Sequence record: OQ378934.1
Origin: Escherichia phage LH2
Length of the DNA: 64,000 nucleotides
Strand: one strand, 5' to 3'
In this document: piece after piece, positions 58,432-64,000 of the stretch
Numbering within the stretch: the first letter of the stretch is position 1
Layout of the letters: the number at the start of each line of letters is the position of its first letter
The notes under the pieces: generated by a model
What the model saw: the letters and a program-made list of their open reading frames with translations, nothing else
Databases searched by the model: none
What the model was told of the DNA's origin: nothing
Program-made: the position numbers and the translations under genes

Positions 58432-59097
58432 ATGTTCCATTACATTTATAAAATAACAAATAAAATTAATAATAAAATCTATATAGGCGCTCATTCTACC
58501 GAAAATTTAGATGATGGATATATGGGTTCTGGTAAATTATTAAAAAGAGCCCAAGACAAGTATGGTATAGAAAATTTTTCTAAAGAAATATTAGAGTATT
58601 TTGATGATAAAGAATCTATGCTTGAGTCAGAAAAGAATATTGTGACTGAAGAGTTTTTAAAGCGCCCTGATGTTTATAATTTGAAATTAGGTGGTGAAGG
58701 TGGTTGGGACCATTTAAACACTAAAGAATATTTGGATAAAAAGAAAGAAGCTTCCTTAAAAGGGGCTGCTGCTTTTAAAACCAGATTTGAGAACGACCCA
58801 GACCTTAAAGAAAAATATCGTAAAATGGGTTCAGAAAGGTTTAAACAGCTTTGGGATAATCCTAAGTATAGAGAGAAATTTTTAAATATTAAATCTTTCT
58901 TGGGTAAGACCCATACTCCTGAAACTATTAATAAAATGAAAGAATCTCACGCCAGAAATAAACACCAACAGGGCGAAAAGAATTCCCAATTTGGTATGAT
59001 GTGGATTCATTCATTAGATGAAAAAGTTTCTAAACGTATTAAGAAAACTGACCCAATTCCAGAAGGATGGTTTAAAGGTCGAAAAATGAAATTTTAA
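58432..59097 (+). CDS. segB: GIY-YIG homing endonuclease inside the tRNA cluster (SegB-like)
   Basis: 221 aa; YIYKITNKINNKIYIGAHS ... DDGYMGSG ... NLKLGGEGG; sits between tRNA-Ile and tRNA-Arg as segB does in T4. Confidence 0.8.
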   Translation: MFHYIYKITNKINNKIYIGAHSTENLDDGYMGSGKLLKRAQDKYGIENFSKEILEYFDDKESMLESEKNIVTEEFLKRPDVYNLKLGGEGGWDHLNTKEYLDKKKEASLKGAAAFKTRFENDPDLKEKYRKMGSERFKQLWDNPKYREKFLNIKSFLGKTHTPETINKMKESHARNKHQQGEKNSQFGMMWIHSLDEKVSKRIKKTDPIPEGWFKGRKMKF

Positions 59098-59100
59098 TTA

Positions 59101-59177
<77 letters not shown>

Positions 59178-59179
59178 AA

Positions 59180-59487
59180 CAAGAAACCGGGTCGCTACCG
59201 GTAAGTCGTCGGACTGATGTTCCCTGGAGTATAGTTTCTCCCACAGTTTTACTGTGTTCTGATTCTTTACTATCACAACAGAAACGGCGCACCGAATTAT
59301 CGATTCGAGGAAATATCTTTGCCGTAAGCCGAGTAGCGTTTTTGACGGAACGTTCGGATATGGTCGAGATATGGCCTTTTAAAAATATTGAGTAGCGTCA
59401 ACTGCTTAATAACCGGGTTCAAATCCCGGCGTTTCGTACAAACACTTGCCTTAGCAGGTGGAACCCCGACAAGATTGCCGCAAGGCT
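59180..59487 (+). ncRNA. stable-RNA region (T4 rnaC/rnaD-like), boundaries not resolved
   Basis: About 300 nt ORF-free and GC-rich, directly after tRNA-Arg, ending at a terminator; contains a tRNA-like T-arm CCGGGTTCAAATCCCGG. Confidence 0.4.
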
Positions 59488-59488
59488 T

Positions 59489-59516
59489 AGCCCCACCCGA
59501 AAGGTTGGGGCTTTTT
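59489..59516 (+). terminator. rho-independent terminator, copy 1 of a duplicated terminator
   Basis: Hairpin AGCCCCACCCGAAAGGTTGGGGCT plus TTTTT. Confidence 0.7.
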
Positions 59517-59518
59517 GG

Positions 59519-59526
59519 TATAAATA
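59519..59526 (+). promoter_or_regulatory. late promoter TATAAATA
   Basis: Exact consensus 40 nt upstream of the ORF at 59566. Confidence 0.5.
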
Positions 59527-59565
59527 TAGTAGTATATTAAATCACGAATTAAAACAGGAAATAAG

Positions 59566-60024
59566 ATGAAATCATATGCTCAATTTTTAAATGAAGCATC
59601 CGCTTCAGATGTTCGCGCTGTAGCAACTGCTGCTATTAAAGCTGGTAAATATTCTTATAAAGATGCTTCTGACGAATCTCGGTACAAGTTCTACGACGAT
59701 ATGAGAGCTGAAGGCTTTGTGGGTAACTATGTTACCACCGCCTGGAAAAGCCTGGTTGCTACTGGTGCGGCTTTCGAAAAACCTTCCGGTAAACCTGCTC
59801 CTAAGGCTGACCCTAAAGCAGCACAAGAGAAAAATATTGCTAAAGGAATTATCTCTAGGTATGAAGCAATTCTTAAAGAACTTTTGGTAATTAAGACCGA
59901 AGGCCAGAAACTTGCGCGAGCTCATAGTTTCAAAGATAACCCACATGCTCATGACCTAGAGTATGTTGAAGATCTCCAAAAAATCATCAAAGACCGCATT
60001 TGGTCTGCTAAACAAATCAAATAA
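59566..60024 (+). CDS. internal-protein-like protein with capsid-targeting-sequence-like N-terminus, 152 aa
   Basis: N-terminus MKSYAQFLNEASA resembles the T4 internal-protein targeting sequence; driven by a late promoter; flanked by duplicated terminators. Confidence 0.55.
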   Translation: MKSYAQFLNEASASDVRAVATAAIKAGKYSYKDASDESRYKFYDDMRAEGFVGNYVTTAWKSLVATGAAFEKPSGKPAPKADPKAAQEKNIAKGIISRYEAILKELLVIKTEGQKLARAHSFKDNPHAHDLEYVEDLQKIIKDRIWSAKQIK

Positions 60025-60031
60025 CATTCTT

Positions 60032-60059
60032 AGCCCCAGCCGAAAGGTTGGGGCTTTTT
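60032..60059 (+). terminator. rho-independent terminator, copy 2 of a duplicated terminator
   Basis: Hairpin AGCCCCAGCCGAAAGGTTGGGGCT plus TTTTT; one mismatch versus copy 1. Confidence 0.7.
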
Positions 60060-60193
60060 GGTATCTAGGCCTTTCTGGATCTCTCTAGGCATCATTTAGT
60101 TTCTACCTTTTATAATATATTATCCTATCCTTTAATTGCCCCTCCCTGCCCTAGAATTCCCTAAAACTTTTTAAAAAATTTTTTCACAAAACT

Positions 60194-60223
60194 GTTTACA
60201 TCCCTGTTCTTCCATGGTACTAT
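60194..60223 (+). promoter_or_regulatory. early promoter (GTTTACA, 17 nt, TACTAT)
   Basis: T4 early promoter consensus upstream of the ORF at 60268. Confidence 0.45.
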
Positions 60224-60267
60224 ACAACTATCAACTACTGATACAGAAAAACAACTTGGAGAATGAA

Positions 60268-60531
60268 ATGGATAATTACGGCGAACTGTTCAACTTCTTT
60301 ATGAAATGCGTTTCAGAAGATTTCGGTCGTACAGTGAATGATATTAAAGTTATCGGTCCTGATCATCCGATGTTTGAAACTTACGCAGTAATGGGTAATG
60401 AAGATGGTCAGTGGTATACTGTAAAGGTTGTGATTAACATGTTCACTGCTGAAGGTTATGTTAAACTGTCTTCTAAAGTTTACCATGATAACGACGAAAT
60501 CGCAGAAGAATATTTTAATAATATGAAATAA
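60268..60531 (+). CDS. hypothetical protein, 87 aa
   Basis: ATG with GGAGAA Shine-Dalgarno; the ORF-track start at 60214 lies inside the promoter. Confidence 0.5.
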   Translation: MDNYGELFNFFMKCVSEDFGRTVNDIKVIGPDHPMFETYAVMGNEDGQWYTVKVVINMFTAEGYVKLSSKVYHDNDEIAEEYFNNMK

Positions 60532-60567
60532 GTTTACATAGGCTCATGATTGAGATATTATGAGCCT
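60532..60567 (+). promoter_or_regulatory. early promoter (GTTTACA, 17 nt, TATTAT) with embedded stem-loop
   Basis: Stem AGGCTCAT/ATGAGCCT overlaps the -10. Confidence 0.5.
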
Positions 60568-60586
60568 ATAATTTGAGGAAACTGTT

Positions 60587-61105
60587 ATGCCTCTTTATAC
60601 CGAACTGAATGAAACTTCCGAAAAATCTTTTGATGGTATCTTATCAATAATGCAAAAGCAGGTATTAGAACAGCTTAGTGAAGCCGCAAGCAACGGACAT
60701 AAGGCTTGTCGAATCCCAAGCCCACATCGTCGCCTGTATGAACGCCCTCTTATTAATTGGCTAGAAAGCGAAGGTCTTACAGTTAAGATTTGTCCTGCCA
60801 AATTTGATGTCCCACGTATTCTTAATATTTACTGGGATAAACCGATTGAGAAAAGTGAACCTTGGGTTGTCAATGTAAAAACATATGATAATGGATGCTC
60901 ACTTGAGGTGTCTGCTGTAATTAAAGGCACTCACGGTGAAAAATCGTGGGGTTGGCCTGGTAAAGATAAAGAAATCGTGTTAAGTGTAAAAGCTACTAGT
61001 ATTAGTACTCCTATAGCTAAAAGCATTATCGCCGCCGCTGTTGAAGAAGCTGAACGAATTTGTAAAATTAAAAATAGTTTACATCTCTTAAATAGCATGA
61101 TATAA
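60587..61105 (+). CDS. hypothetical protein, 172 aa
   Basis: ATG ORF downstream of the early promoter module. Confidence 0.5.
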   Translation: MPLYTELNETSEKSFDGILSIMQKQVLEQLSEAASNGHKACRIPSPHRRLYERPLINWLESEGLTVKICPAKFDVPRILNIYWDKPIEKSEPWVVNVKTYDNGCSLEVSAVIKGTHGEKSWGWPGKDKEIVLSVKATSISTPIAKSIIAAAVEEAERICKIKNSLHLLNSMI

Positions 61106-61148
61106 TTCTTCCACAGATTTTAATTTTTAATCAACCTAAGGAAATACT

Positions 61149-61742
61149 ATGAACACACTGAAGAAAATTGTTGAGTTTATTCGCACTAAACTTGGTTCTG
61201 CTATGGCTAAAAATCTATCTGCTGAAGAACAGTATACTGCTGCAGCAGCAAAACTTCTTGATAAAATTAAAGACCTAAAAACTGCTTCTGTTAAATCTAT
61301 TAATGAAGAAAAACGTATTCGTGAACTTGTTATCGAAAAGAATCGACAAGCCGAATCAAAAGAGCGTGAAATTCGCAAACTTCTTTCCGAAGGTCAAGAT
61401 GTAACAATGCATGCTAAGCTCGGTTTACTATATCGTCGAACAGCTGAGCAGTTGACTACTAAAGCTGATGGTTATGCTGAAATGCGAATTGAAATCGCCA
61501 AGAAAGTAGTTGAGTTAGATGATGCTCGTCAAGAACTTGCAGTTAAATTGGAATATATCCGTGAAACTCGTGCGGCAAATGCCCTTGGAATTAGTACTGC
61601 TGATGATGTAGTTGAAATCGCAGCGCTAACTAAGGTTGATATTGAAGATACTCTTGCTCGAGTTGAAACCTTTAACGGTAATATTTCCGGGGTTGAAACT
61701 ACCTCTGCCGATGTTCAGGAATACATTAATTCTCTGAAATAA
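61149..61742 (+). CDS. coiled-coil protein, 197 aa, possibly PspA/IM30-like
   Basis: Almost entirely alpha-helical heptad-type composition; PspA-like call is a weak impression from pattern only. Confidence 0.45.
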
Positions 61743-61746
61743 TGAT

Positions 61747-61764
61747 AAGGGGCTTCGGCCCCTT
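61747..61764 (+). terminator. hairpin, probable terminator
   Basis: AAGGGGCTTCGGCCCCTT; weak T-run. Confidence 0.4.
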
Positions 61765-61783
61765 ATACTTGGAGTAAATAGGA

Positions 61784-62398
61784 ATGAAAATGAAAATGCA
61801 AAGTGATTTCAATTCAATGTTTGAAGAGTTCCAAAGACAGGTTGATGTTCCAGACCAATTACTAAATGCTCTTAAACGTATGGCAGAAGGACGTAATTAC
61901 TATTGGGGGTCTTCATATGAAACTGATGAAAGTCTTTCTGGAAGATTTTCTAGAGGTAAAAAGTCTTTAATACGTCCTGGAATACTCATTAACAGTATTG
62001 AATCAATTCATTCATTGACGTGTGATTTTGATGTTGAATTTACTGATTTCATTTCTCCTGAATGGACAGTTTGTTATTTAAATGACGATTATGATTATCT
62101 TGGCGTTTATAGTTTAAGTGACGCATGGTTTAAACGTAATTTACAAAAGTCAAATTTGTTCTATATTGATACTACGGTAAAATTTCAGGGAAAGAAATAT
62201 TTCTTTACTCTTATAGTTGATTCTGAAACAAAGCATGAAAATAAACGTATTCTTAGTAAAAAGAATATCTTAACTATTGTTGATGATCTTTTTGATAAAT
62301 TCGTGGAAAATCCTAATTTTGAAAGCGATTTATTATTAGAAAAATTTGTTAAGGAATGTAGAGAATATGTCAAAGCCATCATTATACCTTCCAAGTAA
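61784..62398 (+). CDS. hypothetical protein, 204 aa
   Basis: ATG ORF with GGAG Shine-Dalgarno. Confidence 0.5.
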   Translation: MKMKMQSDFNSMFEEFQRQVDVPDQLLNALKRMAEGRNYYWGSSYETDESLSGRFSRGKKSLIRPGILINSIESIHSLTCDFDVEFTDFISPEWTVCYLNDDYDYLGVYSLSDAWFKRNLQKSNLFYIDTTVKFQGKKYFFTLIVDSETKHENKRILSKKNILTIVDDLFDKFVENPNFESDLLLEKFVKECREYVKAIIIPSK

Positions 62399-62759
62399 AC
62401 CTGTGAAGTATGAACTAAAGCGTCAGCTAATTCCTACTGATGTATTAATAGGTCCTGTGACAGCTATATCATTTGTAATTCTATTGATTGTTGGAATGGT
62501 TATAGACTTTATGACTGATATTGAATCTGGCGTAATATTTTTGTTAGTATTAATTCTTCCATTAGTAGTTCCATTTTTATTGGTACCTGTAAATTGGGTA
62601 GGATATTGGTATCAAGGAAGGCATTATCGTAAACGTGTACGTGAATGGAAAGCTCAGTGTAAAAAGATTAAAAAGGAACACCAGCTTAAACTAAATATGT
62701 ATGAATTTAATGAAATTATGAAATTTGTTAAGGAATCACGATGCAAAAGCCAAAACTAA
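62367..62759 (+). CDS. small membrane protein, 130 aa from ATG
   Basis: ORF-track start at 62346 is TTG; two strongly hydrophobic segments then a basic tail. Confidence 0.45.
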   Translation: MSKPSLYLPSKPVKYELKRQLIPTDVLIGPVTAISFVILLIVGMVIDFMTDIESGVIFLLVLILPLVVPFLLVPVNWVGYWYQGRHYRKRVREWKAQCKKIKKEHQLKLNMYEFNEIMKFVKESRCKSQN

Positions 62760-63034
62760 ATAAAGTCAAATATTCGTTTCCTGAGGCACTATTAATTCTT
62801 GCCGTGTCAGTATTTGCAGCTCCTGCTGGTAGTCTTATTGGATTAATGATTGACTGTTTTATTTTAAACATCGATAGTTCAGCAATTATAACAGAGGTTT
62901 GGAGTGAACTTCGTTTTACTATAGCGATTTCATTATTTTCATTCTTTGGCACCATGCTATATTTTCATTATGATAATTTTAAAATAAATTGGCAAAGAAA
63001 AAAAGGATTACAAAATACAATTAAAAGAATATAA
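62741..63034 (+). CDS. small membrane protein, 97 aa
   Basis: Two hydrophobic segments; overlaps the previous ORF. Confidence 0.45.
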   Translation: MQKPKLNKVKYSFPEALLILAVSVFAAPAGSLIGLMIDCFILNIDSSAIITEVWSELRFTIAISLFSFFGTMLYFHYDNFKINWQRKKGLQNTIKRI

Positions 63035-63100
63035 TAACTACATGTCTTATATTGAAAATGAATCAATGAAAGAGTTTGTGAGTGATTGTAGGAAAATTAA

Positions 63101-63589
63101 ATGATTTTAAAAACTCGCTGGTATGATTTAGATGATGGGGATGATGGCATTCCAGTTGATAGAGTTGACTGGAATGGTTGTTCCGAAGATACAAAGAAAC
63201 GATTAATTAGGGAGTTTAGAATGGGATATCAAGCAGCTAAGCCATTTACTGTAACAGATGATAAATTCGTGTGTATTCAAAATGGTCGCGCTAAGTTAAC
63301 AAATGCTGATTGGTTCACAGATAAGAAGGTTCTTCTGTGGTATATCATTAGTCTTCCTATATCATCATTCGTATTTTACTTTTTTATAAAAAATCCAATG
63401 GACAGAATAGGCGATTGGATTCTTTTAACTATACTTGTTAATATTTTTACAGCAGCAGTATTATCAGGAATATGGCGTATGTTCATTGAAATGCCGTGGC
63501 GTTTACGCAGACAACAAAAGATTTTTGATGAAAAGAAATATACTCAAAATTTAAATAACTTTATCACTGAATGCAGGAAATTAAAATGA
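63101..63589 (+). CDS. membrane protein, 162 aa
   Basis: Soluble N-terminal domain followed by two hydrophobic segments. Confidence 0.5.
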   Translation: MILKTRWYDLDDGDDGIPVDRVDWNGCSEDTKKRLIREFRMGYQAAKPFTVTDDKFVCIQNGRAKLTNADWFTDKKVLLWYIISLPISSFVFYFFIKNPMDRIGDWILLTILVNIFTAAVLSGIWRMFIEMPWRLRRQQKIFDEKKYTQNLNNFITECRKLK

Positions 63590-64000
63590 AAACACTATCA
63601 GCTGGTATTATCTTTATGACAGAAGATAAAGATTTATTTATGGGTCGGGTTACTGGTTCTCGTAAGCCTGGAATGATGGCACATCGCTGGGATATTCCAA
63701 AAGGCCGTGTAGAAAATTCTGATTTAAACGCACTAGATGCAGCACGAAGAGAATGTTTAGAAGAGACTGGTTTTAGCAATTATAATCCAGACCTTCTAGA
63801 AGACCTAGGTGTATTTAAATATTCTAGTAATAAAGACCTTCAGTTATTTTATTATACGATTCCAGTAGAGCATGAGATGTTTAGAAATTGCCATTGCGAG
63901 TCTTATTTTGAAAATAAAGATGGTGTTATGATTCCAGAGATGGATGCTTTTGCTCTTATTCCTCGTACTCAGTGGCAATATGTGATGGGTCCTTCACTTT
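63586..64000 (+). CDS. nudE: Nudix hydrolase (NudE-like), 3' end truncated by the window
   Basis: Nudix box GRVENSDLNALDAARRECLEETG; ATGA overlap with the previous ORF. Confidence 0.8.
   Translation, partial: MKTLSAGIIFMTEDKDLFMGRVTGSRKPGMMAHRWDIPKGRVENSDLNALDAARRECLEETGFSNYNPDLLEDLGVFKYSSNKDLQLFYYTIPVEHEMFRNCHCESYFENKDGVMIPEMDAFALIPRTQWQYVMGPSL

Follow-up and report, generated by a model that had tools for sequence, protein, structure and literature searches.

In the LiaI-LiaH system of Bacillus subtilis, the PspB/PspC-PspA system of enterobacteria and the PspM-PspA system of mycobacteria, a soluble PspA-like protein is encoded beside small inner-membrane proteins, and LiaI, PspB/PspC and PspM are the membrane anchors or adaptors of LiaH, PspA and mycobacterial PspA, respectively. 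Such pairs of a PspA-like effector and small membrane partners have been treated by Ravi et al. 2024 (PMC11237479). We analysed 64,000 nucleotides of Escherichia phage LH2 (OQ378934.1), below called the window, in which positions 61149–63589 encode a set of matching architecture: a helical protein, E.6, followed by a soluble protein, E.5, and three small membrane proteins, E.4, E.3 and E.2. Judged from sequence and predicted structure, E.6 is very probably a true, if distant, homologue of PspA/IM30/Vipp1, the proteins that form the bacterial branch of the membrane-remodelling ESCRT-III superfamily.

Phage T4 is the reference lytic phage, and about half of its genes, including e.2–e.8, have no assigned function. 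The window has a G+C content of about 36%, and its segment 59500–64000 showed 94–97% DNA identity with hundreds of Tequatrovirus (T4-like) genomes. Identities of the open reading frames (ORFs) were assigned from the annotated T4 record and pairwise alignments, which showed the block to be orthologous and syntenic with its T4 counterpart, at 69–100% protein identity and with conserved order and orientation. By these comparisons the source is a T4-like coliphage (Tequatrovirus) and the block is the T4 early accessory cluster e.6-e.5-e.4-e.3-e.2. The direct T4 orthologues (NP_049742 to NP_049738) have the same order and position between the tRNA cluster and nudE/e and are labelled “conserved hypothetical” or “predicted membrane protein”. 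The five ORFs are real genes and not chance ORFs, since they are conserved at this level in hundreds of genomes and all five proteins, E.6 to E.2, were detected in T4 infection (PMC9697503 supplement).

Relationship of E.6 to PspA, IM30 and Vipp1

The 197-residue helical protein that the earlier note had placed at 61149–61742 corresponds to a real ORF. Its AlphaFold2 (AF2) model, with a predicted local distance difference test (pLDDT) score of 76, was about 80% helical, with helices at residues 3–22, 25–80, 86–145, 166–174 and 186–196. The long hairpin 25–80/86–145, modelled with pLDDT values exceeding 85, is followed by two short helices at the C-terminus. No hydrophobic segment was found (maximum Kyte-Doolittle value of a 19-mer, 1.05). 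The N-terminal helix alpha0 is predicted to be amphipathic and cationic, with a hydrophobic moment of 0.45 (0.49 in E. coli PspA; E.6 family mean, 0.42) and a net charge of +4.

Two alignments were used for profile searches. A1 contained close E.6 homologues, all from T4-like phages and each sharing 46% identity or more with the protein of the window, whereas A2 contained 40 E.6-family sequences including divergent members, with identity down to 18%. The divergent members were supplied by an exhaustive HMMER search with A1 over 1.84 billion representatives, which matched 45 proteins, all about 200 aa long. With A1, hmmsearch against the PDB reached Synechocystis Vipp1 at E=2.1 only, yet in a collinear alignment. 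Run against the PDB, the A2 profile matched Vipp1 sll0617 (E=1.1e-4) in a collinear alignment of positions 1–146 with 1–147, and eight of its nine best matches were Vipp1/PspA. When A2 was compared by hhalign with a small PspA/Vipp1 profile, the probability was 92.4% (P=5.3e-7) over 168 columns starting from residue 1 of both, and “ARVETF” of E.6 was paired with “ARFESF” of PspA; the reversed-profile control gave 0.5%. In a Foldseek search of the E.6 model against the PDB, the top eight matches were all Vipp1/PspA (best E=4.8e-4, probability 1.0) and the ninth was the archaeal ESCRT-III protein CdvB2.

Divergent family members provide the link to the curated family PspA_IM30 (PF04012), whose Pfam cut-off is 33.9 bits. 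P0067 (E=8.9e-10, 39.0 bits) and P0066 (E=1.4e-8, 35.1 bits) scored above it, Kuttervirus ORF8 (E=3.6e-8, 33.7 bits) scored at the threshold, and P0068 and P0069 reached 22 bits (E about 1e-4). These divergent members join the T4-type E.6 family at E=1e-21 to 3e-20, and P0067-type proteins come from Ackermannviridae. The Kuttervirus protein (Salmonella phage vB_SentM_sal1 ORF8, QMV34086.1), annotated as “PspA/IM30 family protein”, is a full-length E.6 homologue that aligned with the window E.6 by BLASTP at E=1e-11 over 194 aa with 23% identity; its Pfam score places it closer to cellular PspA than E.6. Like e.6, it precedes small membrane protein genes, but these encode one transmembrane (TM) segment and lack the C-terminal motif described below, whereas E.4, E.3 and E.2 have two TM segments and the motif. 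The E.6 family spans phages of many hosts (Escherichia, Klebsiella, Aeromonas, Serratia and Salmonella) and is carried by two phage families, Straboviridae and Ackermannviridae.

The link between E.6 and PspA thus rests mainly on profile and transitive evidence, because single-sequence searches were empty and the close-family profile search returned no canonical PspA. The description “faintly PspA-like”, drawn from composition alone in the earlier note, holds at the level of the family profile and not for the single window sequence; likewise, the search of 61149–61742 against PspA/IM30 that it had proposed gave nothing at E≤1 for this ORF alone, while P0067 and P0066 passed the Pfam cut-off. 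Compared with PspA/IM30 (Vipp1)/LiaH, the likeness consists of a collinear profile over alpha0–alpha3 and part of alpha5, a predicted amphipathic cationic N-terminal helix, a predicted long hairpin, a length of about 200 aa and small membrane proteins as neighbours. E.6 differs in being shorter, in its divergent C-terminal third ending in Y-[IL]-x-S-L-K, in being encoded by lytic phages and not by cells, and in lacking a PspF, PspBC, LiaI or LiaF context.

The C-terminal motif of the genes 3′ of e.6

The motif F-[IV]-x-x-C-[RK], located in a C-terminal helix, marks the genes 3′ of e.6 throughout the Straboviridae. ORFs were scanned in 40 e.6-homologue loci from IMG/VR. In 39 of them the gene immediately 3′ of e.6 encodes a soluble protein of 150–290 aa that ends in the motif, and in 26 it is joined by one to four small TM proteins, downstream of e.6, with the same ending; in two large Aeromonas phages the ending takes the variant form F-[IV]-x-Y-C-[IV]. 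Nearly all motif-bearing ORFs (104/110) lie downstream of e.6. In RB43 and Aeromonas phages, the e.6/e.5-like pair is kept together even at a location near nrdD/nrdG, away from nudE. When the 30 C-terminal residues of every ORF in the window are considered, E.5 and E.2 are the only products with the strict motif, against a shuffle expectation of 0.14. In T4 (scanned over 1–73.5 kb and 128–169 kb, the stretch 73.5–128 kb being covered through its homologue in the window), the C-terminal occurrences are confined to e.5, e.3 and the 36-aa ORF that remains of e.2.

The codons of the motif vary (TTT/TTC at F, TGT/TGC at C and six Arg codons), as does the tail beyond it, from 0 to 24 residues. With such free codon choice and no fixed tail length, selection acts on the protein and not on a ribosome-binding site. 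In profile-profile comparisons of E.4, E.3, E.2 and a fourth TM family, only the C-terminal 14–28 residues aligned (P=1e-5 to 1.6e-4), and the likeness is therefore described as a shared C-terminal module. E.4 and E.3 are connected by weak BLAST links via intermediates; full-length paralogy of E.4, E.3 and E.2 is not claimed, as the alignment is confined to those C-terminal residues.

E.5 was overlooked in the earlier note, which had the membrane proteins follow directly on the helical protein; this 204-residue product intervenes and has no TM segment in 19-residue Kyte-Doolittle windows, indicating a soluble protein. Its motif, F188-V-K-E-C192-R193, is encoded at 62345–62362 (ending ...EKFVKECREYV...), and in an alignment of E.5-like proteins at only 15–22% identity N100, F188, C192 and R193 were invariant. 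No significant fold match was obtained: the AF2 model from a shallow alignment had a pLDDT of 64, and the best Foldseek match in the PDB (E=0.018, TM 0.17) is meaningless. The precomputed Pfam accession PF26876 is attached to the E.5 homologues P0211–P0224, so a curated family may exist.

The three small ORFs that the earlier note had credited with two hydrophobic segments each do exist, and the TM prediction it had called for gave TM segments in E.4, E.3 and E.2; two are clear in E.4 and E.2, while the second segment of E.3 is weaker. E.4 has two strong segments (2.6 and 3.1 in 19-residue Kyte-Doolittle windows). Its charges (N-terminus KR5/DE2, loop KR0/DE3, tail KR15/DE5) predict an N-in/C-in hairpin by the positive-inside rule, and the very basic tail ends in the motif variant F-V-K-E-S-R-C, encoded at 62724–62744 (C-terminus ...KFVKESRCKSQN). 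E.3 has one strong segment (2.2) and one of about 1.5; its full-length C-terminus in relatives is ...EFVSDCRKIK, and the truncated window product is without the motif. In E.2, a soluble N-terminal domain of 76 aa precedes two TM segments (2.0 and 2.2) and a basic tail ending in N-F-I-T-E-C-R-K-L-K, with the motif encoded at 63560–63577. Two TM segments and a predicted N-in/C-in topology would place the motif of all three proteins in the cytoplasm.

E.6 itself ends in a consensus, V-x-x-Y-[IL]-x-S-L-K, found in 34 of 40 family members (61690–61739, residues 181–197 in the window). Its spacing pattern equals that of the extended partner motif, hydrophobic-x-x-F-[IV]-x-x-C-[RK]; this likeness may reflect a pattern general to amphipathic helices, or it may point to mimicry of the C-terminal helix of E.6 by the partners.

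A third motif-bearing class comprises small soluble Trp-rich ORFs of 92–135 aa ending in …F[IL]xxCR… (e.g. FIKQCRRNQNVS, FLEYCRSDVQL). They were seen in loci L017–L049, about 2–3 kb downstream of e.6 (L026, 7848–8147; L019, 8016–8345), and are absent from the window and from T4.

Proposed role of the cluster and alternative explanations

We lean, by analogy with the described systems, towards the cluster being an early, dispensable Psp/Lia-like module of the phage that protects or remodels the host inner membrane, with the motif-bearing proteins as anchors or adaptors. E.6 would be driven by its own early promoter. As in PspA, Vipp1 and LiaH, its alpha0 would bind the cytoplasmic face of the host inner membrane and its hairpin would mediate polymerisation, and the polymer would stabilise or reshape the membrane and preserve the proton-motive force during membrane insults. 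Candidate insults, named speculatively, are lesions from DNA injection, holin build-up with lysis inhibition, and membrane-attacking abortive-infection effectors; equally speculatively, the module might serve to reseal the membrane after injection, or maintenance of the proton-motive force might keep the holin from triggering prematurely or while lysis is inhibited. Gene linkage and the analogy with LiaI-LiaH, PspB/PspC-PspA and PspM-PspA suggest that the motif-bearing proteins recruit or regulate E.6, and the tails of the phage membrane proteins could do so as the anchors of those systems do. The module would be conditionally useful and non-essential. The conserved pairing of e.6 with motif-sharing proteins also lends support to the theme of a membrane-remodelling partner raised in the earlier note.

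The resemblance to these systems is architectural only, as E.4, E.3 and E.2 showed no sequence similarity to PspB, PspC, LiaI, LiaF or PspM in Pfam or NCBIfam. The phage set moreover adds a soluble protein, E.5, and is defined by the shared C-terminal F-[IV]-x-x-C-[RK], which to our knowledge is not found in LiaI-LiaH, PspBC-PspA or PspM-PspA.

Several observations weigh against a phage Psp/Lia-like module. The window E.6 alone had no match to Pfam PspA_IM30 at E≤1 and none in Pfam, NCBIfam (PspA/LiaH included) or PADLOC as a whole, hhalign of A1 against the single E. coli PspA sequence gave a probability of 0.6%, and canonical PspA was absent among the 45 proteins matched by A1 in the 1.84 billion representatives. 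E.6 has 197 aa versus 222 in PspA, and over its last 50 residues it can be compared only loosely with alpha4/alpha5. The membrane-protein neighbours of the Ackermannviridae homologues are without the motif. Homologues of the psp/lia partners PspB, PspC, PspF, LiaI, LiaF and PspM were not found in the cluster, and E.5, E.4, E.3 and E.2 had no Pfam, NCBIfam or PADLOC match. When T4 e.2–e.8 were knocked down by CRISPRi-ART in a laboratory host, fitness was unaffected (PMC11879866 supplement); the sensitivity of this screen is limited, since the endolysin gene e was likewise scored “Not Fit” in the same table. The membrane partners are also individually dispensable, as e.3 is frameshifted in the window and in RB32 and e.2 in T4.

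A more specific form of the idea, which we regard as tentative and on the improbable side, is a phage-owned Psp/Lia-like system in which an E.6 polymer serves changeable clients or anchors that dock via a hydrophobic-x-x-F-[IV]-x-x-C-[RK] helix. The clients would be the E.5-like soluble proteins, the two-TM proteins and the small Trp-rich proteins. Because the partner helix resembles V-x-x-Y-[IL]-x-S-L-K of E.6, it could occupy the C-terminal-helix site of a neighbouring subunit in the polymer. Such a system would keep the membrane sealed and energised after DNA injection and in lysis inhibition, or neutralise membrane-perforating abortive-infection effectors, and the homopolymer frameshifts in e.3 and e.2 would turn individual anchors on or off.

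It is unlikely that E.4, E.3 and E.2 act alone in superinfection exclusion, immunity or lysis timing, roles that the earlier note had suggested, and that their adjacency to e.6 reflects only the packing of early accessory genes. They are small early inner-membrane proteins, like T4 Imm, Sp, RI and Ac by annotation, their number varies between phages with some frameshifted, as is typical of arms-race genes, and they are dispensable in the laboratory. However, none of the three had similarity to Imm, Sp, RI, RIII, holins or defence/anti-defence families in Pfam, PHROGs, NCBIfam or PADLOC; the PHROGs matches of the cluster proteins were confined to families of unknown function or the generic “membrane protein”; and the T4 knock-down was without fitness effect in a laboratory host. 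Their only conserved element is the cytoplasmic C-terminal motif, which they have in common with the soluble E.5-like protein 3′ of e.6 (39/40 loci) and which points to a common cytoplasmic partner and not to periplasmic exclusion.

Nor do we give much credence to E.6 as a PspA mimic that interferes with the host by binding PspF or PspB/C, by poisoning PspA through co-polymerisation, or by decoying a defence that uses PspA, such as type II CBASS. Phage decoys of host proteins are common, expression of the cluster is early, and the homology covers alpha0–alpha3, the part that mediates partner and membrane contacts. However, identity to E. coli PspA is about 14%, low for a mimic of specific host interfaces, and the conservation of the family in phages of many different hosts is what a self-sufficient function would predict. 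Since host transcription is shut off by T4, repression of psp would bring little gain. The type II CBASS of Bacillus cereus, studied in B. subtilis, does tether its cyclase to PspA (PMC11153139), but this link is known from Bacillus and not from enterobacteria, and the paper makes no mention of phage homologues.

A coiled-coil composition artefact, with E.6 an unrelated helical protein, is very improbable. Three independent methods gave collinear matches that start at residue 1 on both sides and extend over 140–170 columns, the reversed-profile control fails, two family members exceed the curated Pfam threshold with no other family recurring at comparable E-values, and a GenBank record already names the Kuttervirus homologue a PspA/IM30 family protein. 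That the motif is a nucleotide-level feature, namely a Shine-Dalgarno sequence or translational coupling for the next gene, can be dismissed: each window motif does lie 10–35 nt from the next start codon with AAGGAA/AGGAAA inside or beside it, but this sequence falls on K-E in e.5/e.4 and on R-K in e.3/e.2, and the variation in the codons of the invariant F, C and R and in the spacing after the motif (0–24 residues) rules out a Shine-Dalgarno artefact.

If E.6 belongs to the PspA/Vipp1/ESCRT-III superfamily, a gene conserved across two large phage families gains a concrete, testable function. A phage Psp/Lia-like module would suggest that lytic phages carry machinery of their own for membrane maintenance instead of depending solely on the host phage-shock response, and it would bear on the resealing of T4-infected cells after DNA injection, on membrane potential through long lysis inhibition and on resistance to membrane-attacking defences. 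The ESCRT-III superfamily would gain a compact viral branch, its proteins about 197 aa long and distinct at the C-terminus, together with a new candidate motif for recruitment. A full-text literature search found no publication linking T4 e.6, or T4-like phages generally, to PspA/ESCRT-III and nothing relevant on phage-encoded PspA; neither the comparative genomics paper on PSP systems nor a 2025 ESCRT-III review discusses phage-encoded members, and the main text of the HIDEN-SEQ preprint contains no e.x data. At least one Ackermannviridae homologue is already named “PspA/IM30 family protein” in GenBank through automatic annotation, so what is new is not the kind of protein but the T4-type family, with its breadth and its partners. 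Both the C-terminal motif and the gene set linked to e.6 appear to be undescribed. T4-type E.6 homologues are called “hypothetical” or, on no evident basis, “host specificity protein”, and relatives carry the similarly unsupported names “putative phosphoserine phosphatase” (e.5) and “putative sulfurtransferase” (e.3); we found no Pfam, NCBIfam or PHROG match backing any of these three names.

Gene content, expression signals and frameshifts

On the plus strand, the locus runs from the tRNA cluster, split by a GIY-YIG homing-endonuclease gene, through rnaD/rnaC homologues and several small ORFs to the e.6–e.2 block and nudE. As the earlier note had stated, the block lies upstream of a Nudix gene; the start of nudE (63586) overlaps the stop codon of e.2.

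Table 1 Features of the e.6–e.2 block and its boundaries in the window.
Feature	Position	Strand	Description
promoter-like site	61078–61106	+	TTTACA-17-TATAAT with upstream TG; sigma-70-type
e.6	61149–61742	+	197 aa; 98% identity to T4 E.6
intercistronic hairpin	61745–61766	+	9-bp GC-rich stem, C(UUCG)G tetraloop
e.5	61784–62398	+	204 aa; 96% identity to T4 E.5; PHROG 2607, family of unknown function
e.4	62367–62759	+	130 aa; 86% identity to T4 E.4; PHROG 2604
e.3, truncated	62741–63034	+	97 aa instead of 120; 69% identity to T4 (truncated part)
A7 homopolymer, e.3 frameshift site	62998–63004	+	from alignment with relatives
out-of-frame e.3 C-terminus remnant	63036–63104	+	translation NYMSYIENESMKEFVSDCRKIK*; contains F-V-S-D-C-R
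e.2, long form	63101–63589	+	162 aa; PHROG 2203 “membrane protein”; 100% identity to T4 E.2 over 97 aa
nudE (Nudix hydrolase), 5′ part	63586–64000	+	98% identity to T4 NudE; named from relatives' annotation; downstream boundary of the cluster, runs off the window

The start of e.5 is ambiguous between the ATG codons at 61784, 61790 and 61796, of which T4 uses the second. That of e.4 is the ATG at 62367, as in T4, and not the TTG at 62346, since the PHROG match starts at residue 8 of the TTG ORF.

The promoter-like site, about 40 nt before the e.6 start, is the best-scoring sigma-70-like site (11/12) within 59100–64000, and we infer from its sequence that it fits a T4 early promoter. In T4, e.4 and e.5 have early RNA and early protein, e.6 and e.2 early RNA and middle protein, and e.3 early RNA and late protein (PMC9697503 supplement). 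The hairpin after e.6 folds at -15.6 kcal/mol (z=-2.65) and is not followed by a U-run on this strand; its role is probably mRNA stabilisation or attenuation and not full termination. The homologous site in phage SP1 is annotated as “terminator”. An Rfam scan matched only the upstream tRNAs and nothing within the cluster.

The earlier note had taken e.3 for an ordinary ORF and missed a frameshift. The window has A7 where T4, SP1, U115, KMB39 and Nami have A6, and the last 23 codons are thereby out of frame, though still intact to 63104 and identical to the in-frame C-terminus of relatives. RB32 has an independent, longer A-run in e.3 with an identical truncated ending. A search of IMG/VR for the exact sequence context yielded no instance with A7 and two with A6. 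In the A6 form the codons AGA AAA AAG hold an in-frame heptamer, A_AAA_AAG, which is of the dnaX type and at which a -1 shift would yield exactly the short product of the window (…WQRKKGLQNTIKRI*; region 62990–63034). Sequencing error and decay are possible explanations of the A-run, as is a device that gives two products or works as an on-off switch.

The situation of e.2 is the reverse, e.3 being intact in T4 and e.2 intact in the window. T4 e.2 (102 aa; region 67472–67960 of T4) is a frameshift-truncated form of the 162-aa protein, with A5 in place of the A6 of the window (63383–63388) and six relatives, and a 36-aa ORF with the lost C-terminal motif persists in the 160-nt “gap” of T4 before nudE.

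Upstream of the cluster the window differs from T4, in which e.7 precedes e.6. Directly upstream of e.6 in the window is a 172-aa ORF (60587–61105, PHROG 6869) that is not e.7 but an RB69ORF146c-type gene, which “replaces e.7” in RB32; this is a local gene swap with near-identical flanks. A 221-aa GIY-YIG homing-endonuclease-like ORF (58432–59097) lies between tRNA-Met and tRNA-Arg, at the position of T4 segB; in Nami and KMB39 this position has tRNA-Tyr and tRNA-Asn and no endonuclease, and the window has eight tRNA genes versus ten in Nami. After tRNA-Arg come homologues of the T4 small stable RNAs rnaD (59182–59293, 77% identity) and rnaC (59300–59438, 98%), for which Rfam held no matching family at the gathering threshold. 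Farther downstream, after the ORF at 59566–60024, a GC-rich hairpin with a GAAA loop followed by TTTTT (60032–60055) looks like a real intrinsic terminator.

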